DNA of 64,000 nt from Lytechinus pictus (GCF_037042905.1 NC_087250.1:10728001-10792000), one strand, 5' to 3'; shown: positions 6,084-47,232, counted from the first letter of the stretch. The notes: generated by a model from the letters alone, not told the origin. Numbers and translations are program-made.

Positions 6084-6087
6084 CTAA

Positions 6088-22069: not shown

Positions 22070-22669
22070 TCATATTTCAATCAGTTCACCATATAGATTA
22101 ACAGTTTCCTCTATAGTCTGTGGAATAACAAAATGGCGAACATTTCCAACAATACAATCGATCACATCAACAAATTCCGGACTACATCCAAACGGAGGGT
22201 ACTCTCGGCAGAGTAAATGCTCCACCAGATCTTGTTCGGAATATAACAGAGGCATCTTCTGCTCTTCGCAGTCGCACATCTCCGGAGCATAAAACATAAG
22301 ATCCGGTTTCTCGTCTAGAAATTCTACATCGTTTTGACGCCTAATAGAATGTTGATTCCACTCCTGAACTGTTTGATCAAAGTCACTTTGAATTAGCCCA
22401 GTGAAACAAAATCTTAGATTCTCGATATGTACATGGTTACTGTTATCGAATGCTCCGTTCCTCTGCAATTCGTTGAACAGGTTTATCCAAAGACATGTAG
22501 AACTATCAGTAAGATAACGCCACCACCTTTCAATACGTTGATTGCTCGTAGAGCGACCGTACAAGAAACTAGCATGTCGCTTGATATCGTTGTGCTTCAA
22601 GCGAAGGGCAAGTTTTATACCTCGAACAATACAGTGTTCTGTTCCACGATCTCCTCTCAATATGCAAGC
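22070..22669 (-). pseudogene. IS3EU-type DDE transposase, C-terminal part
   Basis: ILRGDRGTEH...FLYGRSTSNQRIERWWRYL...LRFCF...QEWNQHSIR: second D and E of an integrase-core DDE triad. Confidence 0.85.
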
Positions 22670-22676
22670 TTTTCAC

Positions 22677-25182
22677 CTCATCAATCATTCCAACGCTGTT
22701 TTCTTAACAGTAATTTCTTAACAGAAGATTTAAGCTCTGTTGATTGGTCTGACGTTTATAACTCGAATGTGAATGTCGATGACTCATTTGACATATTTTT
22801 GAAATCTTTCAATGACTGCTTAGATTCTTGTGTTCCTTTAAAGAAATATCGAAATTACGATTATAAACGTGTTCCAAAGCTCCCATGGGTTTCAAAATTG
22901 ATATTAAGGTCTATAAATCGGAAAAATAATCTGTATGTTTCTTATATATCAAATCCAAATGATATTTCAAGGAATAGATACACGTCTTATAAAAATACCT
23001 TAACAACTACTCTCCGAATAGCAAAAAAGAGGTTTTATTCAGAAAAATTAAATTCATATAAAAACGACCTTAAAAATACATGGAAAACAATAAATGGGGC
23101 CCTAAACAAAATTAACAAATCTAGTGCTGTTCATAAATTATGTGTAGATGGTAATATGGTTGAAGATACTCATTCTATAGCAAATGAATTTAATACATAT
23201 TTCTCTCAAATTGGACCAAAGTTAGCTGGAAATATTATGCCTGTAGAAAATTCGTTTAAGGACTTTTTGGATAAACAAAATGAAAGTTCAATATTTCTTA
23301 CTCCAGTTCATAGAGAAGAATTACTTGAGATTGTATTTAATTTGAAAGCAGAAAAGACTCCCGGTTATGATGGCATTATAAATAGAGTTGTGAAAAACAT
23401 TATACATTCTCTTGCTGATCCTCTGCTTCATATATTTAATTTATCGTTACAGCTTGGCCAGGTCCCAAAGAAGATGAAAATAGCTAAAGTTATACCCATT
23501 TTCAAGAAGGGAGACCAATTAATTACTAGTAATTACCGCCCAATATCTTTGTTAACTTCGTTCTCTAAAATTCTTGAAAGGATAATTTATAAAAGGACAG
23601 TTGCTTTCCTTAAGAAATATAGTATTATATGTGATAATCAATTCGGTTTTAGAGAAAAACATAATACAACTCATGCTATATTGACATTAATAAATAAAAT
23701 ATCTACTTCTTTTGACGATTCTGATCACACCGTAGGGTTATTCCTTGACTTCTCAAAAGCGTTTGATACAATAGATCATGAAATACTATTATGTAAGCTA
23801 TCAAATTACGGTATCAGAGGGACAGCTTTACAATGGTTTAGGAGTTACCTTACTGATAGAATTCAGTTTGTTACAGTGAATGAATCAGAATCTCCAACAA
23901 GGCCAGTTTCCTGTGGAATTCCACAAGGTAGTATTCTTGGCCCTTTGCTATTTGTACTTTATGTTAATGATATGAAAAATTCATCTCATGTTCTCTCATT
24001 TATTCTCTTTGCTGATGATTCCAATATTTTCTTTACACATCATGATCCACATGTACTTGTGAGCACTATGAATGCAGAATTTAAAAAAAGTAACAAACTG
24101 GATTAAAGCCAACAAACTGTCATTGAATCTGCAAAAAACTAATTATATGCTTTTTAGTCATTCATTGAAACATCTACCGCATCAAATACTTTTAGATAAT
24201 ACTGAAATCAAAGAAGTGCAAACAACAAAATTCTTAGGTCTTACTATTGATCACAAGCTTACGTGGAATGCTCATATCAACAATATTTGCAAAACTGTGG
24301 CAAGAAATATTGGAGTCATCAATAAGCTTAAAAACGCTCTTCCAGCGCAGGCGCTATCCATGTTGTATTGTGCATTAATTCTACCATATCTTAATTATGG
24401 AATTCTGGCATGGGGTAATGCCTCTCAAACGAGACTCAATAAAGTCTTGCTACTTCAGAAAAAAGTACTGAGAATAATATGCAATATGTCCTTTAGAGCT
24501 CATACAGATGAATTGTTTCGTCATAAACGCATCCTTAAAGTCAATGACCTGTACCGCTTGCAACTATTCCAATTCATGTATAAGCTAGATAGAAATAGTG
24601 TACCTAATGTCCTACAAAAGAAATTTATGAGAAACAATACTTTACATTCATATAATACGAGACATTCAAATGACTATCACTGACCCAAAAGTAGAACAGT
24701 ATTTTCTAGCAAAACTGTATTTTTCACAGGACCAAAACTCTGGAATTCTCTGGACAGAGTAATAAAAGAGGCAGCTAATCTAAACCGATTTAAATTACTC
24801 ATCAAAAAATTTATTCTGAATTCTTATTGATTCAATCAAATATTTTGTGAACCTCATACTTACCCACGGTAGTATTGATTATTTTAAAGTCAATATTTAA
24901 TTTTGTATATAGTGTAAATACATTTGTGTTACAGTGTTTATATATAATTTTATAGAATTTTGCTGATTATTTTACTGTACTTATATCATATTACCCTTGT
25001 ATAAAATTTTGATAGGGGGTCTACATTTTACAAGCTTTGCTTTTTAGTAGGCCCCTCCACTTTTTTCATTTCATTGCTACGTTTCAATCCTGTGTGTTAT
25101 GCAATTTTTTCAGTGTTAAAATGATTTATTATAAATGTACTTTGATGATTGTGGAATATGAATATATCAATAAATAAATAAA
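22677..25182 (+). mobile_element. 5'-truncated CR1-group LINE
   Basis: RT in 22427-24106 (YRPISLL, FLDFSKAFD, GIPQGSILGPLLF, FADDS); frameshift at A7 near 24085; 24072-24683 continuation; stop at 24681; 3' hairpin 25014-25060 and (AATA)n tail 25166-25182. Confidence 0.9.
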
Positions 25183-25499
25183 TTTCATTTTGGCGAGTTG
25201 GAATTGCGAGTCGTACGCGAGCTGCGCGAGCTCTCCCTCGCCTTAACTCGCACAAGCTCGCGTGAAATTTACATTTTTTTCTGGAATTTGCTCGAGTGAC
25301 AAAAGACTCAACATCGAGTTTACTACGCTCGCTGTACGAGTGAACCGAGCGCGAAACGAGTCAGACCGAGCTTAGTATGAGTTGCAGTGACCTTTATACG
25401 ACTTAAAGCGAGCTATGAACGAATTATCCATATTTTGTTACGAGTGATAAGAGTTTCATACGACTAAGGGGTGGGACATGCACATTTTTGGCACTCAAA

Positions 25500-26480
25500 G
25501 ATGGATGCCGGCGGCAGCGTCAACACCAAATCTTAACCGAAGGTTAAGTTCTTGAAATGACATCATAACTTAGAAAGTATATAGACCTAGTTCATGAAAC
25601 TTGACCATAATATTAACCAAGTATTATTGAACATCCTCCATGCGTTTCAGGTCACAAGACCAAGGTCAGAGGTCATTTAGGATAAATAAACTTAGACCCT
25701 GTTGTGGGAATCAACATCAAAATCTTAACCTACGGTTAAGTTTTTGAAATGTCATCATAACTTTTTAGAAAATATATAAACCAAGTTCATGAAACTTGGA
25801 CATAAGGTTATTACAGTATTACCATGATTACTAAACACCCTGCTCGAGTTTCAAGTCACATGACTAAGGTCAAAGGTCATTTAGGATCAATGGACTTTGG
25901 CCAATAGGGGTATTTGTTGAATTACCATTATAACTTTGAAAGTTTATGAATCTGATTCATGAAACTTAAATATAATAGTAATCAAGTCTCGAGAACATCC
26001 TGTGCGAATTTCAGGTCACATGTCCAAGGTCAAAGGTCAATGAACTTTGGTGATGTTCGGGTGATCTGTTGAATTACCATCATAACTTTGAATGTTTATG
26101 GATCTGAGTCATCAAACTTGAATATAAGAGTAATCAAGTATTACTGAACATCCTGTGCGAGTTTAAGGTCACATGGCCAAGGTCAAAGATCAAAGGACTT
26201 TGGCCATATATCGGGTGTATTTGTTGAATGGCCATCATCATTCTGAAAGTGTATGAATTTAGTTCATAAAACTTGGACATAAGAGTAATCAAGTATCACT
26301 GATAAGTCTTAGGTCATATGATCAAGGTCAAATGTCATTTATTGTCAATGAACGTAGTATTGTGTCATCATATGAATGGTGTTTTGTGAATAATTATTTT
26401 ATAGTAGTTTTTAAAGTCAGCACTGCTGCTATATTGAATCGCGTGATGTAGGTGAGACTGCCAGAGGCGCTCCACTTGGA
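25500..26480 (+). mobile_element. Repeat with ~155-bp internal tandem units, Helitron/Helentron-like
   Basis: Units containing GAAACTTGGACATAAG..AATCAAGT..GAACATCCTG..GGTCAAAGGTCA recur about 6 times; ends GGTGAGACTGCCAGAGGCGCTCCACTTG. The family assignment is tentative. Confidence 0.5.
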
Positions 26481-28279
26481 CCTGGTCTAGTTTGGTGTCA
26501 TGTTCTTTTACCTGGCTCTGCTCGTCATTGACCTCCTCTTCCGTTTCAATTGTCTCTTCCTGCACTTCTTCTACTTCTACCCTTGTTTGAATGACATCTT
26601 CTTTCTGTGTTTCCCTACCTGAATGGCCACAACTCTTGGATCTTTTGGGTCGAGGCATATTTCTCTCCTTTGTTGGTACTTGTAATAATGCAGTGACAAC
26701 AGCCATTTTAAAGTACGTGTACATGCGTGGGTCACTTAAAATGTGCTCTCACTTTAAAATGAACTCCTCAAAAAAAGTTTGAAAATCTGGCTTTGATCGA
26801 TAATCCCTCCTCGGTTTTAGTAAATATCAATGTGTAATTGAATATCAATGAATAGATCATTCAATTTCTTTTTAAAATGATACCTTACATGATATGATTA
26901 TGGTTCACATGGAGGTGCAGTGCCTTGAAATGGGGGCAAGGTCAAAATTCAAAAGTTGCAAAATGACACAATATTGAAAGTCGCTGTTCTTTTTTCCGTG
27001 GTGATGAGTGAATTTCTTAAGCGGTTTCTTTTGACTCTGATCGATAATCCCGCCTTGGTTTTTAGTAAATATCAATGTGTAATTAATATCAATGAATTAT
27101 TTCTGAGTTTCTCAGCGGTTTCGTTTGTTTTCATGCAACTTAACATCAACATTAAAATGGAATCAAACACACCTCTGCACAAGTAAACACAATAACAAAC
27201 ATAAACCACAACAAAACATAAGAAATGAAGAAGCAAGGGCTTGATTTGAATGGATTTTCATCTCTATTGACACAGACAAAATAATCATGTTTTGTATTGA
27301 CCCTTCATGACTATTTCTGCTCGCTTTGCAGCTTTTCAATTCAGACCTCATCCAACACTTTTGAATTTTGCTCTTTTTTATGGCATGATCAAAACAAGCA
27401 TGGTATCATTTTAGAGAGAATCAAATGATTTTTTGAAAGATATCAAATATGCATTGTGTAAAATTTGGAGTTGGGAGAAATTAAAGGCCAAACTCAGATT
27501 TCCAAACTTTTTTTTGTGCTCGTTTTGCAGCTTTTCAATTCAGACTTCTTCCAACACTTTTGATTCCTGCTTTTTTTGTAATGGCATGATCATAACAAAC
27601 ATGGTATAATTGTAAGGAGAATTAAATGATCTTTTAAATGATGTCAAATATGCATTGTGTAAAATTTTGAGTTGGGAGAAATTAGTGGCAAAACTCAGAT
27701 TTCCAAACTTATTTTTGAGGGGTTTATATGTGGGAAAATATAGATCACTGGACATTTATCATTCAGCTGGCATGTCAATGAGCACTTGCAACGCACTCGG
27801 AATAAACTCATACGAAACTCGCTGTAACTCGGGGTGCTCGATCTTAAGTCGCGCTAATCTCGTGGGCACCTCCACTTGACTCATAAAACGATCGCAATGC
27901 TCGTATCTCGCTCTTGAAAACTCGGAATGCACTCGCGTATACTCAGATGTGGCGAGTTATTACGAATTATGGCGAGTTTATCTCGAGCTTCTTACGAGTT
28001 ATTGCGAGTACTGCGAGTATATAATGAGTTTAGGTGAGTTCAGCACGAGTTACAGTGAGTTTACTTGGCAAAATTTTTGAACATGTTCCAAAATTTTGAA
28101 AGTGCTCACGACTTCAAGGAGAGTTGTCCCGAGCTCCGCCGAGCCATGCCGAGTTGTCGGGAGTTATCCCGAGTTTCATGGTGAGCTTTATGCGAGTTAT
28201 CGCGAGTGCCTCATTTTGGCAACTCGCTATAACTCGCCATAACTCGCGATATTAACTCGCCAAAGTGGAAACCTTGCCC

Positions 28280-28909
28280 TAATGTCTCGCACATATTCCA
28301 TGTATAACTTGGCAATATAACGTGGATCGTTATTCGTGGATCCTTGTAGCAACAGAATCTTGCGGGAGAATCCGTCGATTGCACCGTGAACAGCAAATCC
28401 AAAAACCTTCAACTTGTCGTAACCGTAAATGTGAACCAAGAAATTGGAACCCTTTACTAACGTATTGCCTCCGGCGTAACCGTCGTCTCGATCTTGCTCA
28501 ACTCCTTCTGGATCTAGGACTGAAAGGAGTTGTCTTAAAAAGTTCTGTGGAATGCAAATGTCATACCTTGTCATCAGTCTTCTCCACATTGCCCAATAAC
28601 CTAGATGTTGCCCACTTCCTTGGAGTTCCTGCCTCAAAGTCGTCACAACATGGTTAAAATTTGGTTGGTTATCCCTTCTCCGGATGCCTAATCTAAAATG
28701 ATTCGCCTAATCTGTCTCAGGCTTTCAGTGATGTTATGGCGCATAAGTAAAAGGATGATGACCTCGGTGGCTGTGTACCCAATTGTGTAATAATGACGAA
28801 CAAGTTCATCCCTAAGCAGGCCATTCCCAGGGATTTCAAATGCTTCTGCAGTATAGCTGGGTGGTCTTGCTTGGACTCCGTCTAACAATAGCACAGGACA
28901 CAATAGAAC
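28280..28909 (-). pseudogene. IS3EU-type transposase, N-terminal part (exon 2)
   Basis: RDELVRHYYTIGY...ESLRQIRRI (HTH-like), ELQGSGQHLGYWAMWRRL...LDPEGVE, and HIYGYDKLKVFGFAVHGAIDGFSRKI (first catalytic D replaced by Y). Acceptor TTTTATTGCAG|GTT at 28910/28909. Confidence 0.85.
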
Positions 28910-29739
28910 CTGCAATAAAATACGATTTTGAACAATACCGTAACTCAGTTGAACAAAATCAGTTCACCCTTTAATTTCCAGTCGTATAGTATATTTATTC
29001 AAAATATGTCACGTTCAAAATACGTAAAAATTAGTTGTATTCTAATTACTCGGACTAAACAGGCTTACTTTGGGGGTAGCGTTTTTAAGAAACTGTATTG
29101 ATGCAGCTAAATATAATCCAGATTTGTACTGAACAGGAAACTCGTTATCTAAAAACATTTAAAATTCAGTGTAGTGATAAAACAATGACCAATTGACCAT
29201 AATATACCTGAATCCATATTACGACTCCTATAGGGTTCATTGAGCATACAAGATTTCTAGTGCTCACTAATTCATTGTACAACAATATTGTTTGGTTGTA
29301 ATTATAGCAATTTCAATTTTCATTTAAAGGGTCGATGCCAAAACGTCTATTATAGTAGGATCCAACGTTTTTCTATTAACACAAATTTCCAACTTTTCAA
29401 TGGGCCATGTTTTAGAAAAGTGAGATTGATCTCAACTTGATATTTGATGATCCAATTGTCGTTTTATTTCTTGCTGTACTTCGTGTCCCCCACCCCCCCC
29501 CCATATCCCTCTGATTTAGCGCTAAATTATTCTAAAATAGGAGGATTAAACGAGAATTTACCGTTTGAAGTTTGATCCTTATTTTATGAGTAATTGGAGG
29601 TTAGAGAATACATGAAAGCTCGCCCGCTACGCTTACGTTCAATCCTCAAAGCGACTGTGACTACTGGTGAGAACGAAAATAAAATAAGGCTTACGAGAAC
29701 AGACCTAAAAGATCCTGAGTAAGGGAGGGAGAGGAGGGC

Positions 29740-29852
29740 ATGTATCCTCTAACCTACAATTACTCATAAAATAAGGATCAAACTTCAAACGGTAAGTTCT
29801 CGTTTAATCCTCCTATTTTATTTCATAATTTTCGGAACGAGAATACATGAGA
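29740..29852. repeat. DIRS internal complementary region (ICR)
   Basis: 29740-29820 is the reverse complement of 29533-29615; 29816-29852 is the reverse complement of ~38218-38255. Confidence 0.85.
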
Positions 29853-29954
29853 TTTCAAAGCCCAGTAGTCACATGCGTCATACTTCCAGAAAATTAACTA
29901 ACCTGCAAAGTGCAGAACTTATTTCCCTTGGTGTAACACTGCTTACGTGTAGGA

Positions 29955-30251
29955 ACCATTTTGATCCTCCACTGGTTTGTTATAAAAAGTCTGAAAAGTT
30001 TTTTTCATTTGCCCAACCTACATGTTTGAGAATGCATTTTGTCCGTAGAATAAATCACTGAAAAATTCTAAAATATCCCTAGCTCTGGCCTGCATCCATG
30101 GAATATTGTGTTCTTGGCAAATTTTTTTCCACTTGTTTATGTAAATGTTGTACTGCTTCTTTGTTGATTTTCTCCAAGATGCACCAATGATGTCTGTAGT
30201 TTGCTTAGTTAGTCCTTGTAGGTCACAGTGTGCCCTCCAAGCCTGCAACAA
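29955..30251 (-). pseudogene. DIRS tyrosine recombinase with internal deletion
   Basis: N-terminal GLTKQTTDIIGASWRKSTKKQYNIYINKW is joined near 30045 to C-terminal ILKHVGWANEK..TFQTFYNKPV; the catalytic core is absent. Confidence 0.75.
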
Positions 30252-30862
30252 AGGAGATCAAGATTAGTAAGAGGGTGGGGTCTGCCAGACACTGGCTGAG
30301 TGAGCAGCACATCAAAAAAAACAAAGGCTCTTCTAGCATCATTTCTTCCAGGGAAATGAACCAAGCCTGTGTAGGCCAATTTGGTACTACTATTAACCCT
30401 TGTGCACCATCTACTTTAATCTTCTGTAGACATTTAGCGATAAGGTTGAAGGGAGGGAAAGCATAGAAATCAAGTTTCCCCCAGTCCAATGTAAATGCGT
30501 CAACTGCCCATGCATTTGGGTCAGGTTTCCAAGAGACATATTTAGGTAATTGAGCATTGAGTCTCGTTGCAAATAAATCTACCTCTGGTGGGCCATATTT
30601 ATTAAGTATTTCCTTAAAAGCCATCTCATGAAGGGCCCATTCAATGTTGTCATTGAATGTGCGGGACATACGGTCAGCTTCAACATTTTAAGTACCCGGC
30701 AAGTAGGCAGCTGTAATCCAAATGTTTCGGTCTCTACACCAATTCCATATTTGTTTGGCCATTTCATTGCATGAATTTGATTTAATACCCCCCCCCCCCA
30801 TCTTGTTGAGGTAAGAAGCTGCCGTCATGTTGTCTAGCCTGTTCAAAACATGCACATTTCTC
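30223..30862 (-). pseudogene. DIRS pol C-terminus: RNase H end and methyltransferase-like domain
   Basis: LRNVHVLNRLDNMTAASYLNKMGG...WITAAYLPG; DLFATRLNAQLPKYVSWKPDP..AVDAF..DW...YAFPPF. Confidence 0.85.
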
Positions 30863-31699
30863 AAATAGTGTGGTACGGTATGTCACTGACACAGCTCCCG
30901 TAGGACTTTCGTGCCAAAATTGATTTTTTGGTTGTTTTGGCTTCAATAGGGTCCTCTTAGACCAAAAATGATGGGGTGAAAATTTTCAGCCCCCTCCTTC
31001 CCTTCGTGGGGGGGTCCTTTTTGGCACCATATTGGGCTGTACAAAGCCCAATAAGATAATCCATTCTTTTCAACCTTATTTCTCACTTTTCTTCGCCAAT
31101 TTTATTTTTAAGTTGTCTGAGGTGTATGAGAATGAATATTTGATGATGTTGTGATGTCAATTTCTTTTTCACTTTTACCATATGGGGGCGGAATTTACGA
31201 AAAATGCCCTAAAATTGTAAAATATTATCCCTAAAATTTCATTTTCCACCTTTTTTGGCACTAGAATTAGGACAAAAGGGTTACAAAATTAAATGAATAT
31301 GTCTTGTTATACAATCCAATAACAGAGGAATATATCACATGCAATTTATATCATTATTTTTGGTCAATTGATGTAAAAATCAACCCCATTTCAGGATTTT
31401 ATGCAGTGAAAAACTTACTACAACACTAGAGGGCGCCATAACTTATGATAAGCACTGCCTTTAAAAAAATCGAATTCTAGGCATTGTAATTTTATCAATG
31501 AATTTGAAAGCTGACACATTTCAAGAGCAATTATTTCCAATGCCAATTCATAGTATGGGCATCTAATTTGTTTTGATTCTAACCCCCCCCCCCTGGGGGG
31601 GGGGGGGGAGGCAAAACGGTTGCCTTAGGCTAAAAGTCCTGGATTCATTTTTTTAATTTGGTTTCAATTCAAAAGTTTTTAAGGGTGAAGAAGTATATC

Positions 31700-34080
31700 G
31701 GCAAAATGATCAAGGACAGCAAGTGGTCTCGTGCCCAGAAATCCAAGATGACTTTCAAAAATGGAGTTTAAAATGGCTGTTGATACTTTAAATGGACATA
31801 GCACATTTTATATCAACCTGAGATAGATGGAATCGGTGTCTAGACCATGGTTTCAAAGATCAAAACTGGGACAAGAATACTGGTTCCTTTTTTTCATTTA
31901 TTTAATTTTTGGAAGCCATCTGGGATTTTTCAACATACCGGGACAGTCAGCGGTCCGGTATGTTGAAAAAAATCCAAGATGGCTTCCAAAAATTGAGTTT
32001 GAAATTGCTGTTGCTGCTTGAAAAACAGATATAGTTTGTTCAATATCCGGAAATATGAGTTTTTGTGTCTACCATGGTAAAATAGGTCAAATAATACATT
32101 AGAATAAGTTACAAGGAGAGTCGTTGGTCGAGTATGTTAAACAATGAAGTATAAAATAGCCACTGTTATTTACAAATTGAATATCCATCAAGGATATGGT
32201 TTTGATGTCTAAACCATGATTTTTAAAGTAAGAAAATTAGTTACGAGCGTTCGAGTGTTGTGGCCCAGTGGATTAGTCTTTTGACTTTGAAAGGGTCGTA
32301 GGTTCAAATCCCAGCCATGGCATAATTTCCTTCTGCAAAAAATTATCTACATTGTGCTGCACTCAACCCAGAAGGGGTAAATGGGTACCCGGTAAGAAGA
32401 AATTATCTAAATGCTTGAGCGCCTAGGCAGCCAATTTAAAGCAGGGATAATTATAATAGCTGGGCCCGCTGGGAGAACAGTTTTAGAACTGAAGGGGCTT
32501 CCCTAGGTAAATATACCTATATTATTAATATCATATTATAACAAGGACAGTCAGTGGTCTATGTCGAAAAATCCAAGGTGGCGTCAAGAAATCTGAGTCC
32601 AAAGTGACTGCTGTTACTTAAAAGTGGACATAGTTAATTTAAAATCCACCAAGGACATATGATTTTGGTGTCCACTCAATGGTTTCATGATTAAAATGAT
32701 TCTTTCGACTGGTTACAAAGATATGCACTGGTCCATTTTGCCTAAAAATCCAATAAATTTTTCAAAATGGCATCTAAAATGATTCCTAACACTCATTAAT
32801 AATGGTCAGAGTTTATACAATATTAATCTGTGAGGAATAATTTTGGTGTCTACATGGTGGTATAAAGGGTCAGATAATACATTCGACAAATAACAAGGAT
32901 ATTTAGTTTTCAATTTTGTCCAAAATCCATGGTAGATTAAAAAAATTCATCAAATGGGTGCTATTTCAAACTCATGAATCAATATAACTTATCCCATACA
33001 TTTAAGTGTAGGCACCAAAATATTTCTCACAGGTTGATATTGTATGAATGATTTTTTCCACTATACAATAGTCATTTTTAAAACCAATTTTTGAAAGCCA
33101 ACTTGGATTTCAAGGCAAAATGGATAACTGCATAGTTATTGTAACCAGTCCTTAATAAGTATTTTTAACTTTTAAAATACTAGTGTAGACACCAAAATAA
33201 TAGCCCCAGGTGTATGCTTAATGTTCTATATCCACTTTTAAGTAACAGCAGTCATTGAAGCAATCTTGGATTTTTTGACACCCGACTGTTCTTTCAACTT
33301 GAAATATACTTGATCCTTTAAACTCTAGTGTAGACATCAAAATCAAATCCACGATGTGCGCTTCTTATCTACTTTTAAGAACCACAGTCAATTTAGACCC
33401 TGCATTTTGGAGGCCATATCGCATTTTTGACATACCAGACCACTGACTGCCCCTATTAACTTGTCCTAATGTCTTATGTGACCCTTGAAACCATTGGTTT
33501 AGACACCAAAATTATATATCCCAGGACGATATGAAATGAACTATGTCCGCTTTAAGTGTCAGCAGCCATTTTAAGATCAATTTATGGAATTCATCTTTGA
33601 TTTATGGACATACCAGACCACTGACTGTCCTTGTAATTTATCCTCATATATTACTTGACCCAAACCAGTGGTTTAAAGTTAAACATCGAAATCACATTTC
33701 CCTGGACGATATGAAATCAGCTATGTCTGCTTTAAGTTTAGCAGCCATTTCAGAGTAAATTTTTCTGAAGCCATCATGGATTTTTGGACCCACCAGACCA
33801 CTCACTGTCCTTGTAACTTTTTCAAATTTACTACTTTACCCTTAAAATCATTGACTGGAAACCAAATTGTGGATTTTTAGCACACGGCAGCCATTTCTTA
33901 TGCCATCATGGATTTTCCAGGTATCCTGGGGTCCTTATATTCAATCTACCTTGTTTCAACAATTATTTTACCTCCTAGACCATGGAGTATGAAACCAATT
34001 AGGATTCTCGGGTGGATAATGAGTGAGTCGTATTTATCAATTTTCAGTGAATGGTGGCCATCTAGGATACTATTTTGAAA
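31700..34080. repeat. Degenerate ~180-bp tandem repeats in two opposed arrays
   Basis: AAAATCCAAGATGG / TGGTGTCTA.ACCATGG motifs run forward in 31700-33000 and reversed in 33050-34080 (CCAGACCACT at 33435, 33613, 33791). Confidence 0.7.
32253..32540 (+). mobile_element. tRNA-derived SINE
   Basis: A-box TGGCCCAGTGG (32261), B-box GGTTCAAATCC (32301), body CATTGTGCTGCACTCAACCCAG..AATGGGTACC, LINE-like 3' tail and (TAT)n end. Confidence 0.85.
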
Positions 34081-35443: not shown

Positions 35444-36765
35444 AAATGGGAGCAATAAGCTTTCAGACCAAACCCTGCTGATAATGTCTCTAGAAAGTTT
35501 ATTTCATTATTTTTAGCCCTAACCAATTCATGGGCATTCCATCTACCCCCTGTTTGGTAGGTGAGGTCTGTAGCACCACAGTCTTCCCCACTAGCATCTG
35601 TACGTAGTTCCATCGTAAATTTCCCATGATGCATTTGGCATGTCGTTGATGTAGCATTTGTGGCCCACCATTCCAGATCCTTCTTAGCTTCTGTCGAGAG
35701 TGACATGACTCTATCAAAATACCCTTTATTACATCTTAAGGCTGCTATTTTATCTTTCTCGAGTGCCCTGTAATAGAGGGGGCCATATTGTGAAGCTGGG
35801 AATGCAGCTACTATTTTCCCAACTAACTTAGCAACTTCTTGTATAGTTGGACTCTTTTTCTCATACAACCTAATGCATGCCTCTTTTAAGTCTTTACCTT
35901 TGTTGTCAGGCGATGTGACTGTCATTGTAATCGTACTGAGTTGAAACCCCCAAAACTACACTACTTGAGTGGGCTCGAGAACAGACTTTGAGGAGTGAAT
36001 TATAAATCAATGATAACTTAATAGTGTCGTTGTGGCCAACACAGACTTGTTTGTTGCTTCTTCATTCTTTCCAATAATTAGGGTGTCATCCAAATACCCG
36101 ACAACTTTGTGTTTGGACTGTCTACGAGAGGCAAACACTGGTTTAGGGAGCTTGGTAAAAAGTCGGGGGGCAGAACTAAGTCCATTTGGTAAGGCTTTGT
36201 ACTGCCAAAGTTGACCTTGCCAAATAAATCTAAGATACTTTCTAGAGTCTGTATGGATTGGAACTGTATAGTAAGCATCACGAAGATCGACTGAAGCTAA
36301 TAAGTCTCCCCGAGAAATAAGAGAGATTGCAGTGGCGAGGTTGTCCATCTTAAAATGGTGATAGTCTACATATTCATTTAGCCAAGATAAATCAAAAATC
36401 AAGCGTACTCCTCCATTTTTCTTAGGCCTTGTAAAGACATTTCAAATGAATTCCCCAGTTACATGGGAGCAGCGTTCAATTACACTTTTTCTTTCTAAGT
36501 TTGCTAATTCTTCATTAATCATTGCCATCTGCATGTTATCCCTCTTGTAGATATGTATGGGTTTTTCATGTCTCGGGGGAAACTTGTCTGGGTCAAACTC
36601 CAATTTATAGCCCTGAATGGCTTGGAGCGGGAAAGGGTCTGAGGTAATTTGACGCCATTTATTGACAACAAGCTTCAGTCGACCTCCAACAGTACATAAT
36701 TCAGGGGGATTCCCATTACAAGCACTTACCTCTTGAGTGCTTGGCTCTGATGTCGGGACTTCCAC
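35444..36765 (-). pseudogene. DIRS reverse transcriptase / RNase H
   Basis: VGGRLK..WRQIT, HFKMD, ASVDLRDAYYTVPI, LPNGLSSAPRLFTKL, GYLDDTL, TDASG, INFLE; several stops and frameshifts. Confidence 0.9.
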
Positions 36766-36767
36766 AA

Positions 36768-38093
36768 CTATTTCTTGCGTTGTGCTCTGTCCTTGTGTGC
36801 TGTTGGTGTGAAAGTGTGGGAAGCTTGCTGAGCTTGCTTGTATTTCCCTTTCTTGTAGTTCTGATGTTGGCCTAAAAAAGCCGATCTGAATTCCCCGCTT
36901 TGTGATAGGTTGAGTAGGACGACAGAGAGGATGATACAGGGGTTAAGGTCTGGTTTGATCATATTTTTTCGAAGCAAGTTCATGCCATAATTGGCATTAC
37001 ACAGCAAGGCTAAAGCATCGTGCTGTTCCTCTGTCATTGAAACTGGATCAAGAGTATGCGCAAAGGCACATAAGCCCTTAGTCATGGACAGCTGAATGTG
37101 CTGAAGTCTAAGGTCTTTATTTCTAGTAGCGGAGCGCAAATTCTCCCCGATGATGGTGTCACTTTTGGGGTGTCAAGAATTTCACAGTTTGCGGGTGAGA
37201 TATATTGTTCAGCCGCTTTCTCAATGGATTTTTCTTCCAGCTTGTAAATCATTATTCAAGATATTGATCGAGCGAAATCTTCATTCAAAGGTGTGCCTAT
37301 GGCACTAGGCGCAGCAAATTTTGCTGCTATTACGAGGATTGTTGAAGGGACAGGATTGATTTCTCCCTTGTCAACCAAAGTAGAGGCAGTTGTAGAGAGA
37401 GCCCTGCCTGAGCTGGCTAAGTTAACGTTTGGAGACCTATGTCTATGACAAAGGTCCTCTTCATCTGCGTCAAAAAGAATGTCACTATTTGGGGTAAGAG
37501 AACCACTCCCATCGCCCTCACCAGGCAAGCCGCGGGCGAACCCAACTAGCGGGGGTTCCAAACTAGCATTAAAAACAGCCTGGTCAGAAGCATGAGCTTG
37601 TACAGGGCCCGCTGGAGGGAGCTTCTCCATCAGGACTGATAACATGCTTTCAAGCCTGTCCATTCTAGAATCTACGCTAGAAGTGCTGAGGTCCCCCCCC
37701 CCCTTTGAGCTCGGCTTTGCCTTACTCAAACTAGTTTTAGATCTACTCTCACCGATCGGTTTAGCCTTGGTCATAGTACTAGATTTCTCTTTAGAGGGTG
37801 TTTTTTTGTGGCAACTTACTTGTATCATGATCGTTCGGCTTTGCCTTACAACTTGTAATCACTTTGTCGTGAGTGGACTTACCCGAGCTCGGCTTTGCCT
37901 TACTCGGCGGCGGTGTCGGCGACTTCTCTCCGGAGCTGCCGGTAGCCTTTGGGCTGTTGCCCGCTGTAACTCCGCTGACACCTGGAGTGAGTCGAGTCGT
38001 GGTAAAAGACTCCATTTCGAAAAATACGAAGCGAAAATTGTCCAGAAAGGATACAGTCTCGTTCACAAGCATTTGATCTTTACTAATGAACAA
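36768..38093 (-). pseudogene. DIRS gag-like ORF1 (fragmented)
   Basis: S/K/P-rich N-terminus, VDSRMDRLESMLSVL coiled coil, and DLRLQHIQLSM..DALALLCNANY..NLLRKNMIKPDLN, directly upstream of RT. Confidence 0.7.
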
Positions 38094-38989
38094 CTAATTT
38101 TAATACGTTGATCTGCCAGATGGCGAATTTTTTTGTGAAAATCCGCGGAAAAAACAAAGTTCATAGCGTGGTTGGTAAGCGCGACGAACGTATTGAACGT
38201 AAGCGTAGCGGGCGGGCTCTCATGTATTCTGGTTCCGAGAATTATAAAATAAAATATAATATAGGCCTACGTCCTAATTTGATCGTCATAATCTGGAAAG
38301 CCTATTTAATCCCGTAACTTATGAAAAAAACATCATCGGTTTTGAACAGAGAGTCTATATGTAAAATCAATGCATTTCAGCCCATTACAAATTTGCAGTG
38401 CTACAATTCTGGTGTCTAAGAGTAAGCACATCTACAAACTCTCACAGTGCAAAATTTTGGTCGGGGAGGAGGACCATCCAGGTTAAAGTTTGCTGTCTCC
38501 TTCCCGGCAGCCAAATTTTGCACTTTGGGAGTATGTTTCTTGTCTGTTATCATTGACTTTCTGTTGTATAACTTAATGTGTTTTTTTATTATTTTGAAAT
38601 GGCCCATCCAACACCGAAACCCAGAAGTATAGGCCTATGCAATGCTTCCTCTATAAATTTTCTTTCAAAATTAAGGATTTTGTATGCACCATAATACACG
38701 AAAAGTTGGAGCGGGCCCCTCCGACACCTACCCCAGGAGTATAATTTTTTCTCTATATTTTTTGTTCAAAATTTGAGAATTTGGTATGCATAATAACATG
38801 CCAGGAGAAGCTTCAATTTCAAAATTTTTCTCACAATTGTAGGCGGAACCCCCTCTCACACCCACCCCCAGATATATATGCAATGTTTTATATATATATT
38901 TTCAGTCAAAATATAATGATTTTGATAACGTCTGGGGAAAAATGTCAAATTCAAATGTTCCTATGGTGAACCCGCATTCCACACCCATC

Positions 38990-39222
38990 GCTCCTAAAAA
39001 TTCTGAAGCAGACTTGACCCGGAAAATGGTATGTTTGGGCCATACTAGACATTATGAGTAAAAGAAATGACCAAGAATAGAGTAAAAACGACCCGGAATA
39101 AAGTCAAATGTGACCCAGAAACAAGTATTTCTGACCCTATTCCGGGTAATTTTTGACCCGGAATGAAGTGTGGCCACAAACGGACTATTTTCCGGGTCAA
39201 TCTGACCCGGATTTTTTTAGTG
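38990..39222. mobile_element. Small MITE with TGACCCGG repeats
   Basis: Imperfect inverted arms TTGACCCGGAAAATGGTATGTTTGGGCCA and TGGCCACAAACGGACTATTTTCCGGGTCAA; right end ...TTTTTTAGTG. Confidence 0.55.
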
Positions 39223-39940
39223 CATATAAGGCCTCTACATTATTAAACACTTGGTGCTAATGAGGTACGATCCATATGATCGACTATTGTAATCCTTGAT
39301 CCGCCCCTTGTGAAGAGGCTACTTGCCAGGCCCTCGCCCTTGGGCTTGGCATTGGCCTTGGCAAAATGTTTTCTCAAAAATAAAATTTGAAAAGCAAATT
39401 CAAAGTTCATATTAATTTTGGTACAACTGAAACATAACAACCTTCTTTTGCCATGAATAAGTTAAATCAAGTTCAGTTAATGAAGGAATACGAAATCCAA
39501 TTTTCGTCACCAGACTTTGTCTTTGGCTTGCCTTGGTGACAGTACAATTTCGCGGGATCGCTGGGCGGGCCAGCCGGGGCCAGGCGATGGCATACAAGCA
39601 GAGCTGCAGAGCCAGCCCACAGTAGGCTAAATAGCAATGAAATAATTAAGCTTCATGTATGTCTAAATAAAACTGGTGGTTAACTATCAACATTGGCTTG
39701 ATTATTTAATTGGCATACTGGAAACACCTCTAAAAAGCGTTCCGTGTTTATTCCGTACTTAGTTAGGGCCTGTATAAGCCTTAGCGTCGGCGTAATGCTG
39801 GGTTCCTCGTAAACCCATGGCCCAAGCAGTACCGTAGTCTATTAAAAACATTCTCATTTGTCATTATATTCCAGTAATATTTCTTAGTCCATTACGGGTA
39901 AAAAATATAATGTAGTTATAAAAAACACACATACACTTAC

Positions 39941-39961
39941 CGGTACGTAAAATACCTCCAT
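39941..39961 (-). CDS. Putative first coding exon (MEVFYVP) of the IS3EU transposase
   Basis: GCGAAC ATG GAG GTA TTT TAC GTA CCG|GTAAGT: a phase-0 donor matching the phase-0 acceptor at 28909; located just inside the subterminal repeats. Confidence 0.45.
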
Positions 39962-40064
39962 GTTCGCCTTCAGATTAGTTCGTTTCATCATGAAATAATT
40001 TGGACGGACAAAACATAGCAGCAGGCTACAAACTGCATTGAATTTAATGCATCCAGGTGCAAAA

Positions 40065-40463
40065 ATCTTGTCATCTGATCGTCTCTTCTAAAAGATGTCG
40101 ACATGACCAGATCCGGGATCTTGTCATCTGATCATCTCTTCTGAAAGATGTCGACATGACGAGATCCAGGATCTTGTCATCTGATCATCTCTTCTGAAAG
40201 ATGTCGACATGACGAGATCCGGGATCTTGTCATCTGATCATTTCTTCCACAAGATGTCGACATGACGAGATCCGGGATCTTGTCATCTGATCATCTCTTC
40301 TACAAGATGTGGACATGACGAGATCCGGGATCTTGTCATTTGATCATCTCTTCTAAGAGATGTGGAATTGACGAGATCCGGGATCTTGTTATCTGATCAT
40401 CTCTTCTTAAAGATGTGGACATGACGAGATCCGGGATCTTGTCATCTGATCATCTTTTCTACA
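40065..40463. repeat. 53-bp subterminal tandem repeat (left of Tx1 insertion)
   Basis: Unit AAAGATGTCGACATGACGAGATCCGGGATCTTGTCATCTGATCATCTCTTCTA, about 7.5 copies. Confidence 0.95.
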
Positions 40464-41465
40464 GGTGAGGAATTCTATCATGCCTTGTCTAAGTCTGTTG
40501 CTAGTGACGCAATTTTAGGAATACAACGAATAGGATCGTTATGGAGAATCTACCTTGGTACGCAAGAAGACAGGGTTAAGCTCATCACTAGTGGTCTGCA
40601 AATGAGGCAAACAAGTCTACCAGTGTACGATACGAACCCATTCACAAAAACAAATAATGAGGAGTTAACCAGGGTAACGATCAAGGATATTCCCTTATCT
40701 GTCGGGGATGACCTCGTGAAATTATCCCTTGAAAAATTGAAATGTAACGTAAAGAGTCAAGTGATCAGACAGAAGTTACGAGTAAGTGGGCAACTCATTA
40801 ACTGTTTGAATGGAGACCGTGTATGTTATATAGAGCCACCATCACAACCTCTGCCGAGAATGATCAACGTCGCAAATATATTTCGGGGCAGAGCTTTCCA
40901 CGCCGGTCAGCCCGAGCAAACAAAGAAATGTTCAAAATGCCTAGAAAATGGCCACCACTCATCGCATTGCACAAATGATATCAAGTGTAGAATTTGCAAA
41001 CAACCTGGGCATAAGAGCACTAGCTGTCATACCGTCGATGCTAACAACGAAGCTACATCAAACGATGCTCAGACCAACACAAGAGATCAACCACTCATCG
41101 ACCACCTTTCAACACAACCAACCACTTCAAGCAATCATCAACACGTAAGCACATCAACACAGCACGCAACACAAAACAAAACGGATGAGCGGGAAATCCC
41201 CGGGACACCAGCGGTGATGACTCATCGTAGCGATGACGCAACTACTGTTCGACCGAAGATTACTCGCCAACCAATTATTTCACAATTTCTACGTCCAAAA
41301 TCAACATCGCCATCAAGCTCCGACTACGCCACTGATGACTCCAGCACACTCTCATCAGGTCAGAATACCCAGGAAGAACGGATAGCTTCTCCACAAAAAA
41401 GCACACCCCAGCAGAAAGTTCAAAAGAGGAAATCGGAAAGAAAGAAATTGACCAAAGCAAAGTGA
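40464..41465 (+). CDS. Tx1-type ORF1 (gag-like, two CCHC zinc knuckles), 5'-truncated
   Basis: The frame is open from the element start; CSKCLENGHHSSHC and CRICKQPGHKSTSC; TRVTIKDIPLSV...CLNGDR; low-complexity basic C-terminus. Confidence 0.85.
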   Translation, partial: GEEFYHALSKSVASDAILGIQRIGSLWRIYLGTQEDRVKLITSGLQMRQTSLPVYDTNPFTKTNNEELTRVTIKDIPLSVGDDLVKLSLEKLKCNVKSQVIRQKLRVSGQLINCLNGDRVCYIEPPSQPLPRMINVANIFRGRAFHAGQPEQTKKCSKCLENGHHSSHCTNDIKCRICKQPGHKSTSCHTVDANNEATSNDAQTNTRDQPLIDHLSTQPTTSSNHQHVSTSTQHATQNKTDEREIPGTPAVMTHRSDDATTVRPKITRQPIISQFLRPKSTSPSSSDYATDDSSTLSSGQNTQEERIASPQKSTPQQKVQKRKSERKKLTKAK

Positions 41466-41541
41466 GTAAACTGAAACTCAGATCACCAAACACGGACATG
41501 GAAAAAAAAAAATCCTCGGTACGAGTGAACGAAAACAGAAT

Positions 41542-44500
41542 ATGTCTTTTTTATCCCTCAATGTAAGAGGGATCAGAAATAAACTGAAACGAAGCAAAAT
41601 TATGTTGTGGATAATTAAACAGAAAACAGATGTAATAATGTTACAATAAAGTTTTTTGACCTTTGAAATGGAATCGATAGTGAGTCGAGAATCACATTAC
41701 CAATGTTTCTTCAATCATGGCACAAACCACTCTAGAGGTGTGGCTATTTTTGTGCGTAAAGGTTACTTTGAACAGATCGAAAAGTTTTTGCACCTTGATG
41801 GTCGAGTTCTTGCGATAAGATTGAAATATGATAAAAACTCTTACCTTGTTGTAAATGTCTACGCACCAACAAAAAATAATGAACAAGAATTTTTTTTATA
41901 GTCATTTAACAGAATGGTTACGAAAAGTGTTACAAGTCAATGATTCATTGGTGCTAGGCGGAGATTGTAATTGCGTTCAAAATGCCCAACTAGATACGCG
42001 AGGTGTGTCTTATGCTTATAAAGAAAATAAGGTGTTTAAGAAACTAATTAAAAATTTCCATCTGATTGATGTTTGGAGGAAAATGTTTCCTTACAAAAAG
42101 CAATTCACCTGGCGTCAATTGTCATTAAACATATTTTCCCGTCTTGACTATTGGCTGTTAATAGATTCTTTATGCTGCTGTGTGCAAACGGTTGAAATTA
42201 AACCTGCTCCAAATTATGATCATTGTGCAATTACTTTAAAATTGACAACTAATAGTCCTCGAAAAGGATGTGGCTTATGGAAAATGAATAATTCGTTATT
42301 AAAAGACGATTATTATACAAAAAATGTGAAAAGTTTGATTAAAAAATTTATATTGGAAAATGTTATTATGAATCCTCAAATGAAATGGGATATGTGTAAA
42401 ATAAAAATTAAAGAATACACTATCAAGTATTCGAAACAAAAACAGAAAGAAAATAATGAAACTTTCAACCAATTGCAATCTGAATTCGATTCAATGAGTT
42501 ATAAGACTGATGAAAACTCATCTAATGAAAATAAAGCTGAATTAGAACAAACAAAAATTAAACTAGACCAATGGTTAACATATAAATGCAAAGGAGCTTT
42601 CATCAGATCCAGACAAAAATGGATAGAGCATGGTGAAAAGTCAACCAAATATTTTTTTGAAAGTGAAAAGAGAAACGGAAAGAGAAAAGAAATTAATTCT
42701 ATTAAAAAGAATGGAAGGGTTATTACAAACCAGGAATCTGTTCTTGGAAAAATATTTCAATATTATAAACATTTGTACTCTAAAACAAACAATGAAGTTG
42801 AATCGTCTGATATTGATGACTATTTAGATTCAACTGTATTACCTACGTTAACAGAACAAGAAGCATTGTCATGCGAAGGTATACTTACTGAGGAAGAATG
42901 TCGTAATGCTTTATTTTCTATGAAAAACAATAAGTCACCAGGTAGTGACGGTTTATCTGTTGAATTTTTAAAATATTTTTGGGACGATGTTAAATCCCTT
43001 ATAATAGATAGTGTTAATGAAGGTTTTATTAAAAAACAGTTATCAGAAACTCAGAAATTAGCTATATTAACTTTGCTGTACAAGAAAGGTGATAAACAAT
43101 GTCTAGATAATTGGAGACCTATATCATTGCTCAACACAGACTATAAGATTGCAGCAAAAGTATTGTGTACAAGATTAAGAGGTGTTATAGATAAATTGAT
43201 TTCTTTTGATCAATCAGGTTATTTAAAACAGCGCTCTGCTATGCAAAATCTACGTTTGGTTAAAGATATTATTAAATATTGTGAATATAATAATCACCCA
43301 GGCATTTTTCTTTTTCTTGATTTTCGAAAAGCTTTCGATACGGTTACCCATCAGTTTTTATTTCAAATATTATACAAACTTAAATTCAAAGAATCTTTTA
43401 TTACATGGATTAAGGTCCTCTATGCAAATGTTGGAGGGAGTGTCATGAATAATGGTTGGATTTCGAAAAAATTTGAAATAAAAAGAGGAATTGGACAGGG
43501 TTGCCCTCTGTCGGCTCTATTGTTTATTCTTGTTGTAGAAATTATGGCATTAAAAATAAAGCAGAATATTGATATCAGTGGTATCACTGTAGAATCTACT
43601 GTAACTGGTATTTCAAAAGAATTTAAGATATCTCAACTTGCAGATGACACTGTTCTCTTTTTAAACAACATTCAGTCTGCCAACTTATGTCTTGGAGAAG
43701 TAAAACGTTTTGGTTTCTTTGCTGGGCCAAGCCTAAATGTAATGAAAACAAATGCTGTCACTATGCAACAACAACATGCATTCATTGAAGGTATTCAATG
43801 GAATGATGAACCTGTCAAGTACTTAGGAATATATCTAACAAGTGATAAAAAAGAGTCTGAACGACTAAACTGGTTTATGAAACTTCAAAAAGTTAAATCA
43901 ATTTTAAATTTTTGGAAAATGAGAAATTTAATTTACTATGGTAAAGTTTTGATTCTTAAATCATTAGTAATTTCTCAATTTGTTTACGTTGCCTCTGTAT
44001 TACCCATCCCCCAGAAACTAATTGTTGATCTCAATAAACTGATGTATAATTCTTTATGGAATTCAAAACGAGAAAAAGTCAAGAGAGCAGTCTTAATTAA
44101 TGATATTATAAGGGGAGGACTGCGAATGATAGATCTGAAATCTAAATTCCAATCCTTACATTTATCATGGTTGAGTAGATTCTTTGAAAATGATAATGAT
44201 GCACCGTGGAAGTTTATGTTTAGATATTGGATTGAAAAAATATGTCCTATTTTATTAATTTTGAAAACAAATTGTTTCAGTAAAGATATGTTGAAGTTGT
44301 GCGTAAAACAAAAGGTACCCGACTTTTATATAGACTGTCTCATAACTTGGAGTGAACTTAAATATATTCAGTTTCCAGATATTGTAAATGTTAAAAATCA
44401 AGTTTTGTGGTACAATAGTAATATCACACATGATAGAAAACCTTTATTTTTTAAAAGATGGTTTGAAAAAGGCATTATAACGATTAATGACATTGTAGAA

Positions 44501-45307
44501 AATGGACGATTTCGGCCAAGAGAACATATTTGTCGAGTGCTTGGCTTAAATTCTTTGTTAATTGACTTTATGTATTCGAAACTGAAAAATGCGATACCAA
44601 AAATTTGGATCGAAAGAATTCTAGACATAAGTTATGCAGATAACGATGAATCAAATTCACAATACGGAAGCGACGTATTCGAAATTAGAACGCTTGATTT
44701 TATTAGACTACGATCAATGAAGTCTCGCAATTTCTATAGTTTATTGTGTGAATTTAAGAAAAGAGAACCGGCTGCTTTAACATTCTGGGAAGGTAAATTG
44801 AACCTTGCAGTTGATTTTGACTGGAAAGACACATTGAAATTTAAGTCTAAGACGTTGAAAAATAATAAAATAAAGCAACTCAACTTCAAAACTCTTCACA
44901 GGATTTTACCGTTTAGATACAACTTGTGGAGGTGGAAAATTGTAACAGACAACTTATGTATTTTCTGTAAAACAACAGAATCTTTTTATCATGTCGTTTT
45001 AGAATGCCCAAGCGTAAAGCTTTTCTGGAAACGTATTGTGAATTTGATTAATTTAATGTTTAAAGAAAAAATTATATTAAACGAAAAATTATTAATAGTT
45101 GGTTTTGATTTCTCACATGAAAAAGCAACAGATATAAATACAGTCCTTGTGTATGCTCAATATGCAATCTATTTGATGTATATGATTAACTATTTCCAAG
45201 GTAAACCATATAACAGTTATTCTATATGGCATGTGTTTAAATATGAAATTCTTTTAGACAACATCTCGGATGTTGTCTCTAAGACCCTGGATGTAAATAC
45301 ATGTTGA
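41542..45307 (+). pseudogene. Tx1-type ORF2 (APE endonuclease, RT, C-terminal CCHC)
   Basis: SLNVRGI, LQ* (stop at 41647 in place of the catalytic E), SRGVAI, NVYAP, frameshift at T8 near 41890, GGDCN, SRLDYW, DHC, KSPGSDG, WRPISLL, LDFRKAFD, GQGCPLS, QLADDT, CIFC..ES..H...C. Confidence 0.92.
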
Positions 45308-45361
45308 TTTGGCAATTGAATGAATAAATACCTCTGACACGAGGAAAAGAAAAAAAAAAAA

Positions 45362-46015
45362 ATCTTTTCTACAAGATGTCGACATTACGAGATCCGGGAT
45401 CTTGTCATTTGATCATCTTTTTTAGAGATGTGGACTTGACGAGATCCGGGATCTAGTCATCTGATCATCTCTTCTAAAAGATGTCGACATGACGAGATCC
45501 GGGATCTTGTCATCTGATCATCTCTTTTAAAAGATGTCGACATGACGAGATCCGGGATCTTGTCATCTGATCATCTCTTCTAAAAGATGTCGACATGACG
45601 AGATCCGGGATCTTGTCATCTGATCATCTCTTTTAAAAGATGTCGACATGACCAGATCCGGGATCTTGTCATCTGATCATCTCTTCTAAAAGATGTCGAC
45701 ATGACGAGATCCGGGATCTTGTCATCTGATCATCTCTTCTTAAAGGTGTCGACATGACGAGATCCGGGATCTTGTCATCTGATCATCTCTTCTAAAAGAT
45801 GTCGACACGCAGAGATCCAGGATCTTGTCATCTGATCATCTCTTCTAAAAGATGTGGACATGACGAGATCCGGGATCTTGTCATCTGATCATCTCTTCTT
45901 AAAGATGTCGACACGAAGAGATGAGGGATCTAGTCATCTGTCATCTCTTCTAAAAGATGTTGACATGACGAGATCCAAGATCTCGTCATCTGATCTTTTC
46001 GCTAGCAAGATGTCG
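45362..46015. repeat. 53-bp subterminal tandem repeat (right of Tx1 insertion)
   Basis: About 12 copies; period 53 (ATGTCGAC at 45481, 45534, ...). Confidence 0.95.
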
Positions 46016-46449
46016 ACTTCCAAAGATAATTATTTCAACATCTCGGTGGCACTTTTAAGCTTCCATACATTTCAGTGGAATATTTTGTGTTGCAATTAGT
46101 GGTGGGTTACCCCCTATTCTGGCTGGATTGACAGGACTATAGGCCTATAGTTACGCAGAATAACTGCAGTTCGGTTCGGATTACTTTAAAACCATGCGAC
46201 TAAATGAGCTTGGTTGGGGTCAGTGGGATAGATGTATAGATATACAGTTACATGTTTTCTGATTGGTTAAATTAAACTTCTATGAAAAAAATCTAGAATA
46301 GATGTGTAGTTGCATAGTTGTCATATTAATGACCTGGATCCTCATAACCGTCTCAATGTTCGTGAGTTGTGAATGATTTTATGAGGCACTTGAGATTAGA
46401 GGGTTCATAATGCCGTATTATGAAAGTGGCATTTTATTGAGTTCATTAA

Positions 46450-47232
46450 TGTATTTATAAAGAACTCACATACACTTACCGGTACGTAAAATACCTCCAT
46501 GTTCGCCTTCAGATTAGTTCGTTTCATCATGAAATTATTTGGACTGACAAAACATAGCAGGAGGCTACAAACTGCATTGAATTTAATGCATCCAGGTGCA
46601 AAAAATCTTGTCATCTGATCGTCTCTTCTAAAAGATGTGGACACGACCAGATCCGGGATCTTGTCATCTGATCATCTCTTCTTAAAGATGTCGACACGAA
46701 GAGATGAGGGATCTTGTCATCTGTCATCTCTTCTAAAAGATGTTGACATGACGAGATCCAAGATCTCGTCATCTAATCTTTTCGCTAGCAAGATGTCGAC
46801 TTCCAAAGATAATTATTTCAACATCTCGGTGGCACTTTTAAGCTTCCATACATTTCAGTGGAATATTTTGTGTTGCAATTAGTGGTGGGTTACCCCCTAT
46901 TCTGGCTGGATTGACAGGACTATAGGCCTATAGTTACGCAGAATAACTGCAGTTTGGTTCGGATTACTTTAAAACCATGCGACTAAATGAGCTTGGTTGG
47001 GGTCAGTGGGATAGATGTATAGATATACAGTTACATGTTTTCTGATTGGTTAAATTAAACTTCTATGAAAAAAATATAGAATAGATGTGTAGTTGCATAG
47101 TTGTCATATTAATGACCTGGATCCTCATAACCGTCTCAATGTTCGTGAGTTGCGAATGATTTTATGAGGCACTTGAGATTAGAGGGTTCATAATGCCGTA
47201 TTATGAAAGTGGCATTTTATTGAGTTCATTAA
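46450..47232. repeat. Tandem copy 2 of IS3EU end + flank (783 bp)
   Basis: Near-identical to 39911-46449 without Tx1; about 3.5 53-bp units; TIR ends at 46850. Confidence 0.9.

Follow-up and report, generated by a model that had tools for sequence, protein, structure and literature searches.

A predicted spliced, signal-peptide-like leader on the transposase of a sea urchin IS3EU/GingerRoot transposon

Introduction

The usual assumption about DDE transposases is that synthesis takes place in the cytosol and import into the nucleus follows. Here, we describe a DNA transposon of the IS3EU/GingerRoot type whose transposase is predicted from sequence to carry a spliced, conserved leader resembling a signal for the endoplasmic reticulum (ER). 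The copy lies in a stretch of 64,000 nucleotides from the sea urchin Lytechinus pictus (GCF_037042905.1 NC_087250.1:10728001-10792000), hereafter the window, for which a preliminary description had reported a 24-kb IS3EU-like element. The structure and function of IS3EU elements are called largely unexplored in PMC11934779. Their published marks, according to two papers (PMC12730594, PMC10045372), are TAYGG..CCRTA ends and 6-bp target site duplications (TSDs). In common with the described IS3EU/GingerRoot elements (PMC10045372, PMC12730594, PMC6839031), the window copy has an rva_4 DDE core, two N-terminal helix-turn-helix (HTH) domains and a TAYGG left terminus. A relative, locus L041, also shares TACGG terminal inverted repeats (TIRs) and a 6-bp TSD. 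The window copy differs in that it is dead, has one end only and carries its 5' end in triplicate.

The term “signal peptide” is absent from the GingerRoot and Hydractinia papers on IS3EU by term search, and two IS3EU papers by Kojima were not among the three papers matching both IS3EU and signal peptide. The literature searched, with Repbase Reports, the 2019 Kojima review, supplements and automatic UniProt signal tags lying outside it, held no report of a signal peptide on an IS3EU or other DNA transposase. Ty1 Gag, according to the abstract of PMC3945221, is targeted by the signal recognition particle (SRP), translocated and then, in its authors' model, retrotranslocated. It resembles the leader-bearing transposase in being a transposon protein that works outside the ER yet is targeted to it; it differs in being a retrotransposon capsid protein for which the abstract names no cleaved signal peptide, and in being experimentally supported, while the transposase case is one that we infer. 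The hepatitis B virus (HBV) precore protein carries a conserved signal that is cleaved, and in vitro the cytosol received 70-80% of the cleaved product (PMC2114996). Like the transposase in the route proposed below, it is a nucleic-acid-binding protein whose signal is cleaved before cytosolic release. It differs in its viral origin, in having no sequence relation to the transposase and in being accompanied by a leaderless core protein, whereas no second form was found for the transposase.

Results and Discussion

The transposase lies on the minus strand in three pieces, a micro-exon (39961-39941), exon 2 (28909 to ~28278) and a C-terminal part (22672-22070), where the preliminary description had placed its DDE pieces. 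Pfam rva_4 (PF24764) matches both core pieces (E values of 1.8e-8 and 1.1e-16), and the HTH piece has a weak match to Clr5 (E 0.25). Identity to full-length relatives is 51-75% along the window transposase, with just four residues lost at the insertion that splits the core. As in IS3EU/GingerRoot elements, the transposase is integrase-like, lacks an HHCC domain and has an HTH N terminus; the predicted structure of a relative, P0006, resembles IstA and retroviral integrases. By sequence, the element very probably belongs to the IS3EU/GingerRoot DNA transposons. The window copy itself is a dead transposon of this type, because the first catalytic D is replaced by Y at 28427, the open reading frame (ORF) is frameshifted near 28695 and has an out-of-frame stretch near 28495-28455, and a 5.6-kb insertion interrupts the core.

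The micro-exon is predicted to join exon 2 in frame, giving a 21-residue leader. We found the acceptor and the phase-0 micro-exon as previously reported, with an AG ending at 28910, a GTAAGT donor and an in-frame splice, and the start codon has A at −3 and G at +4. Six ATG micro-exons with a phase-0 GTRAG donor, 3-15 codons long, lie between 49000 and 28912. Three of them are tandem copies of the exon encoding MEVFYVP and score 15 (BLOSUM62) against residues 1-7 of P0006, an L. pictus gene model; the one remaining candidate of 7 codons scores 0. The window and P0006 have M-E at positions 1-2 and P at position 7 in common, and P0006 aligns to the window without offset from the leader into the HTH. 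In another L. pictus model, too, a 7-residue Met-to-Pro stretch stands ahead of a hydrophobic run. The close relatives P0004 and P0005, which are ORF calls on contigs, read through an acceptor-like Q-V at the equivalent site.

From 80 fetched loci we hand-picked four (L026, L037, L063 and L066) that have no Met ahead of the hydrophobic run, and in each an upstream ATG micro-exon splices in frame. In L026 and L037, as in the window, the micro-exon is phase 0 and splices immediately ahead of the first Val; in L063 and L066 it is phase 2. The L026 micro-exon (90-116) has a GC donor, and its relative L037 has GT. The shared 7-residue start in P0006 and the micro-exon layout of the four loci bear out the earlier claim of a hydrophobic leader ahead of the HTH and core; as far as testable, related loci use a micro-exon and intron before the hydrophobic stretch rather than a different first exon.

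A spanning read across 39941/28909 had been proposed as a check. Of 754 joints from four contig sets presumed to be RNA, 15 were listed, and this joint was absent from those. In run X2 one contig stops at 28910. Another contig of that run begins at 28881 and continues unspliced into the intron, and the two fit a fork at the acceptor, as a weak hint. A sequencing-run search returned no run on record as RNA (best share, 0.14), and a search with the window's N-terminal piece returned three proteins, all contig ORF calls without exon 1.

To place the leader in its family, we fetched 270 proteins, of which 171 covered the HTH and core and 113 remained at <70% identity. A leader was called where 9 residues ahead of the HTH had a mean hydropathy of 2.2 or more. 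By this rule, 31 of the 113 homologues carry a leader, so the reservation that homologues might lack a conserved hydrophobic leader is not borne out; on visual inspection four of the calls seem false and two rows just short of the threshold seem true, and some rows counted as “leaderless” are protein calls that were cut short. Among loci with an N terminus, 39 of 75 were leader-positive by the same rule, about seven of them falsely through read-through of non-coding DNA. Because the queries were leader-bearing, both fractions are skewed and do not give rates for the family as a whole. The leader ranges over cnidarians, echinoderms, a mollusc and a brachiopod, with named models from Lytechinus, corals including Montipora, the clam Mya and the brachiopod Lingula; no leader is present in the models fetched from fish, Clytia, Hydractinia, oyster and Oculina.

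In a quick tree built from the core only, the leader needs 13 changes, compared with a mean of 27 after shuffling. One strongly supported clade has leaders in 19 of its 21 rows, and further leaders occur elsewhere, including among the window's closest relatives, in a tree where several long branches meet and leader gain is not distinguishable from loss. A near-identical set of 18 full-length open proteins is leader-bearing throughout, with 0.019 substitutions per residue in the leader and 0.009 in the core. Judged by these alignments, the leader is a family trait kept in many animal members, and it is this trait that carries the significance of the finding, the window locus itself being a fossil.

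Small residues at positions −3 and −1 are the pattern of cleavable ER signals. By our own rule, the leaders have the layout of a signal peptide, with a short n-region, a hydrophobic h-region and small residues at −1 and −3. What they conserve is hydrophobicity and not sequence; their length varies, and the spacing from their end to an x-P-x-Y motif is constant. Among the 19 leaders in which this motif was found, 15 have a small residue (A/G/S/C) at its Tyr-5, compared with 28% at nine upstream positions (binomial p 6e-6, uncorrected for kinship); position −3 holds A/G/S/C/T/V in 13 of the 19, and position −2 is variable. Six of the 82 rows without a leader start with Met within 8 residues of the motif, the same N terminus that cleavage of a leader would leave. 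The leader ATG has a purine at −3 in 21 of the 27 loci with an in-frame ATG, drawn from 36 hand-picked loci. AlphaFold gave the leader a confidence score (pLDDT) of 56-57 with a mixed alignment and 64-71 with leader-bearing rows only, followed by a disordered linker and an HTH at 84-95.

Together with its hydrophobic core, these features make it probable that the leader is a cleavable ER signal peptide. In the route that we propose, SRP would bring the ribosome making the leader-bearing transposase to the ER, and signal peptidase would cut just before the conserved x-P-x-Y motif. Less surely, translocation would then often be aborted, perhaps at the unusually apolar second HTH helix, after which comes a basic helix. 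The cleaved enzyme would return to the cytosol and then the nucleus, while the remainder would be lost to the secretory route, throttling the amount of active transposase. HTH signature residues are equally conserved in leader-bearing and leaderless rows, and thus the leader-bearing enzyme must presumably still fold and reach DNA. That the cleaved transposase slips back from the ER to the cytosol and nucleus is a tentative proposal, the simplest and likeliest of the routes considered, made by analogy with HBV precore and with Ty1 Gag as a transposon precedent for ER transit; we give it slightly less than an even chance. If a signal peptide is indeed kept in elements of four animal phyla, one superfamily would first route its enzyme to the ER, be it to limit its own activity, to mature the enzyme or to pass it from cell to cell. 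Transposases may then figure in secretome lists of corals, urchins and molluscs, and the natural leader-bearing and leaderless relatives are ready controls.

Several observations weigh against a signal peptide. By the rule, 82 of the 113 relatives are leaderless, and therefore the leader is not needed for transposition. The anchor motif was not found in 11 of the 31 leader rows, and P0069 was mis-anchored yet kept among the 19. N-glycosylation sequons are neither depleted nor enriched in 25 leader-bearing proteins (42 observed, 42.8 expected), and exposure to the lumen has thus left no sign of selection. Leader-bearing and leaderless relatives are alike in Cys, charge and sequon content, a comparison made after dropping 4 false leader rows and 10 doubtful leaderless rows and then rows of <330 residues. 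The window's own h-region contains a Pro that is absent from close relatives. The second HTH helix is apolar in 28 of the 31 leader rows and in 21 of the 82 others, with no such shift in four control helices, but this link to the leader is not shown to be independent of kinship: about 6 of 8 independent pairs are alike in helix 2 (sign test p 0.5). A complex prediction of the leader with the HTH domains scored 0.00 and has no bearing either way, and an atlas search gave leads under 0.9 and none above.

The same helix 2 correlation would be expected if the leader were a structural helix packing on the apolar face of helix 2, within the chain or across a dimer, and residues 11-20 are indeed modelled as a helix reaching pLDDT 71 with leader-only rows. 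Such a helix should keep particular residues, however, whereas the leaders keep hydrophobicity alone, differ in length from one another and close with a small residue at a fixed place; the linker (24-31) is predicted below pLDDT 50, and the correlation fails the independent-pairs test. We therefore consider packing unlikely. If, alternatively, the leader or helix 2 were a membrane anchor holding the transposase at the membrane of the ER or at the inner nuclear membrane, its core turned towards the nucleoplasm, the hydrophobic leader and the basic residues after helix 2 would fit. A signal anchor or type I membrane protein has a membrane-spanning segment of ~19 residues, and helix 2 offers none: it is too weak for a membrane span because hydropathy over 19 residues attains 1.6 in only 1 of 27 leader rows (median, 1.04), and it is modelled as folding into the HTH at high confidence. 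The leader is short by eye, with hydrophobic runs of only ~9-13 residues, and its small residue at −1 points to cleavage, which makes an anchor decidedly improbable.

A cleaved signal could also mean full secretion, with the transposase taken up by other cells, such as oocytes or germ-line stem cells, so that expression in somatic cells would mobilise elements in the germ line or in other individuals. The textbook n-h-c leader with its strong start context, the recurrence of leaders in several lineages of the core tree, the lack of a KDEL/HDEL end among the 24 C termini listed and the lack of a transmembrane segment at helix 2 all agree with export. It would require endosome escape, however, and nothing pointing to escape was seen; Cys, charge and sequon content equal to that of leaderless relatives also argues against it, and we regard secretion as improbable. 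Comparably improbable is the wider claim that a widespread animal branch of IS3EU consists of exported transposases acting in another cell, from soma to germ line or between individuals, by a capsid-free route for a cut-and-paste DNA transposon. The least probable of the alternatives is that the leader form is a decoy or by-product and that active transposase is produced from a downstream or alternative start, or as a leader-skipping isoform. Leaderless relatives exist, some starting at the motif, and the unspliced contig of run X2 passes through the acceptor, but the leader ATGs stand in good context, and in only 8 of 27 leader rows is there a Met within the 40 residues that surround helices 1-2, at varying positions. 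The alternative starts entertained in the preliminary description lack support, there being no conserved Met after the leader.

As regards the ends of the element, a complete relative is itself leader-bearing. L041 is a complete element with TIRs at 3215 and 12608 and a 6-bp TSD, and it encodes a leader-bearing (frameshifted) transposase and a convergent HECT ORF. Its TACGG terminus and tandem array start at 3215 and 3251; the corresponding positions are 1604 and 1704 in L013 and 2157 and 2203 in L021. In the window, TATGG lies 50 bp ahead of the array and the ATG ~104 bp past it. The left terminus is thus at the family-typical distance, and this agreement in spacing with L041, L013 and L021 supports the earlier assignment of the terminus to the transposon.

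The 18-mer terminus occurs three times in the window, compared with 0.13 expected by chance, and the terminus, 53-bp array, micro-exon and 386 bp of upstream flank are present three times in tandem (termini at 48163, 46850 and 46067; micro-exons at 47283, 46500 and 39961). The reported terminus at 46067 beside 53-bp repeats is therefore real, but it is the innermost of three copies and not the sole one. Only this copy C runs on into the element. Copies A and B are identical across the exon-1 region, copy C differs at several sites, and array length varies among the copies. The tandem triplication (48549-46068) takes in host flank and the first 0.5-0.9 kb of the element.

The window holds no right TIR matching the left terminus at ≤3 mismatches, no CCRTA followed by the expected TSD, and no second ORF (HECT ORF2), for which 12 relative ORF pieces were tried (best tblastn E 0.25). 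The figure of 24 kb is therefore one-ended and not an element length. Just downstream of the transposase, a long interspersed nuclear element (LINE) with endonuclease and reverse transcriptase (RT) pieces lies on the minus strand at 13950-21200, split by a 3.8-kb insertion, and it may have replaced or displaced the right half of the transposon. The transposon inserted into or beside another dispersed repeat, because the flank immediately outside the TATGG terminus has an 86% match at 11853-11921; a continuation of this repeat on the far side of the element was not found.

In relatives, a HECT ubiquitin-ligase domain is encoded by a convergent ORF2 (L041:6955-8007, L005:2125-2913, L001:2658-3365, L009:2745-3806 and L013:5142-6476). 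Of eight ORFs scanned with Pfam, five had a HECT match above the cut-off, two below it and one none. The HECT ORF also adjoins leaderless transposases (L035 and L047; weak matches). No paper treating both IS3EU and HECT turned up in the literature searched. In place of a leader, another subset of relatives has a Cys-x2-Cys zinc-ribbon-like N terminus and others an acidic one, such non-leader N termini being found among P0154, P0159, P0112, P0152, L051, L062 and L077. By sequence comparison, the N terminus of the family appears to be a swappable module.

Other features of the window

The coordinates of the transposon and of the elements nested in it are collected in Table 1.

Table 1. Transposon parts and nested insertions in the window
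Feature	Position	Strand	Remarks
Transposase C-terminal part to stop codon	22070..22672	-	Pfam, alignment; second D 22651, E 22531
Insertions in transposase core	22673..28277	.	Element with short inverted ends ~28270-25185; RT-bearing + strand LINE ~22673-25180
Transposase HTH domains and first part of DDE core	28278..28867	-	Pfam, alignment to relatives; frameshifted, first D to Y
Leader h- and c-region	28868..28909	-	14 codons ending V-Q-A; cleavage predicted before RPPSY motif
Intron 1	28910..39940	-	Enlarged by nested elements; AG acceptor ends at 28910
DIRS-like retroelement	29533..38256	-	RT, methyltransferase-like ORF, inverted terminal matches; inside intron 1
4.5-kb element	30896-35423		560-bp inverted arms; splits DIRS-like element
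Micro-exon 1	39941..39961	-	21 nt, 7 codons MEVFYVP, donor GTAAGT, phase 0; leader n-region
53-bp subterminal array, inner part	40065..40461	-	7.5 units
Non-long-terminal-repeat retrotransposon	40464..45361	+	Zinc-knuckle ORF1, 1150-aa RT ORF, poly-A tail; inside array, 11-12 bp TSD
53-bp subterminal array, outer part	45362..46017	-	12.4 units
TATGG terminus of innermost copy C	46050..46067	-	Same flank before it at 46449-46068
Tandem copy B	46450..47232	-	Flank, TATGG terminus 46850, short array 46800-46605, micro-exon 46500-46480
Tandem copy A (outer)	47233..48549	-	386-bp flank, TATGG terminus 48163, array, micro-exon 47283-47263, intron start
Copy A 53-bp array	48113-47388	-	13.7 units

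Xenopus Tx1L elements target Tx1D DNA transposons. The LINE in the subterminal array of the window transposon, which from its motifs we take to be Tx1-like, looks young, with its 1150-aa ORF open, and by analogy it may be target-specific for the 53-bp repeat. The retroelement inside intron 1 is presumably DIRS-like, to go by its layout. The inverted arms of the element that splits it are 91% alike, and its ends carry TAYGG/CCGTA-like motifs; it is possibly a non-autonomous relative. Outside the transposon, a minus-strand ORF at 5579-6091 has a weak Death-domain match (E 0.006) and is probably a host gene exon.

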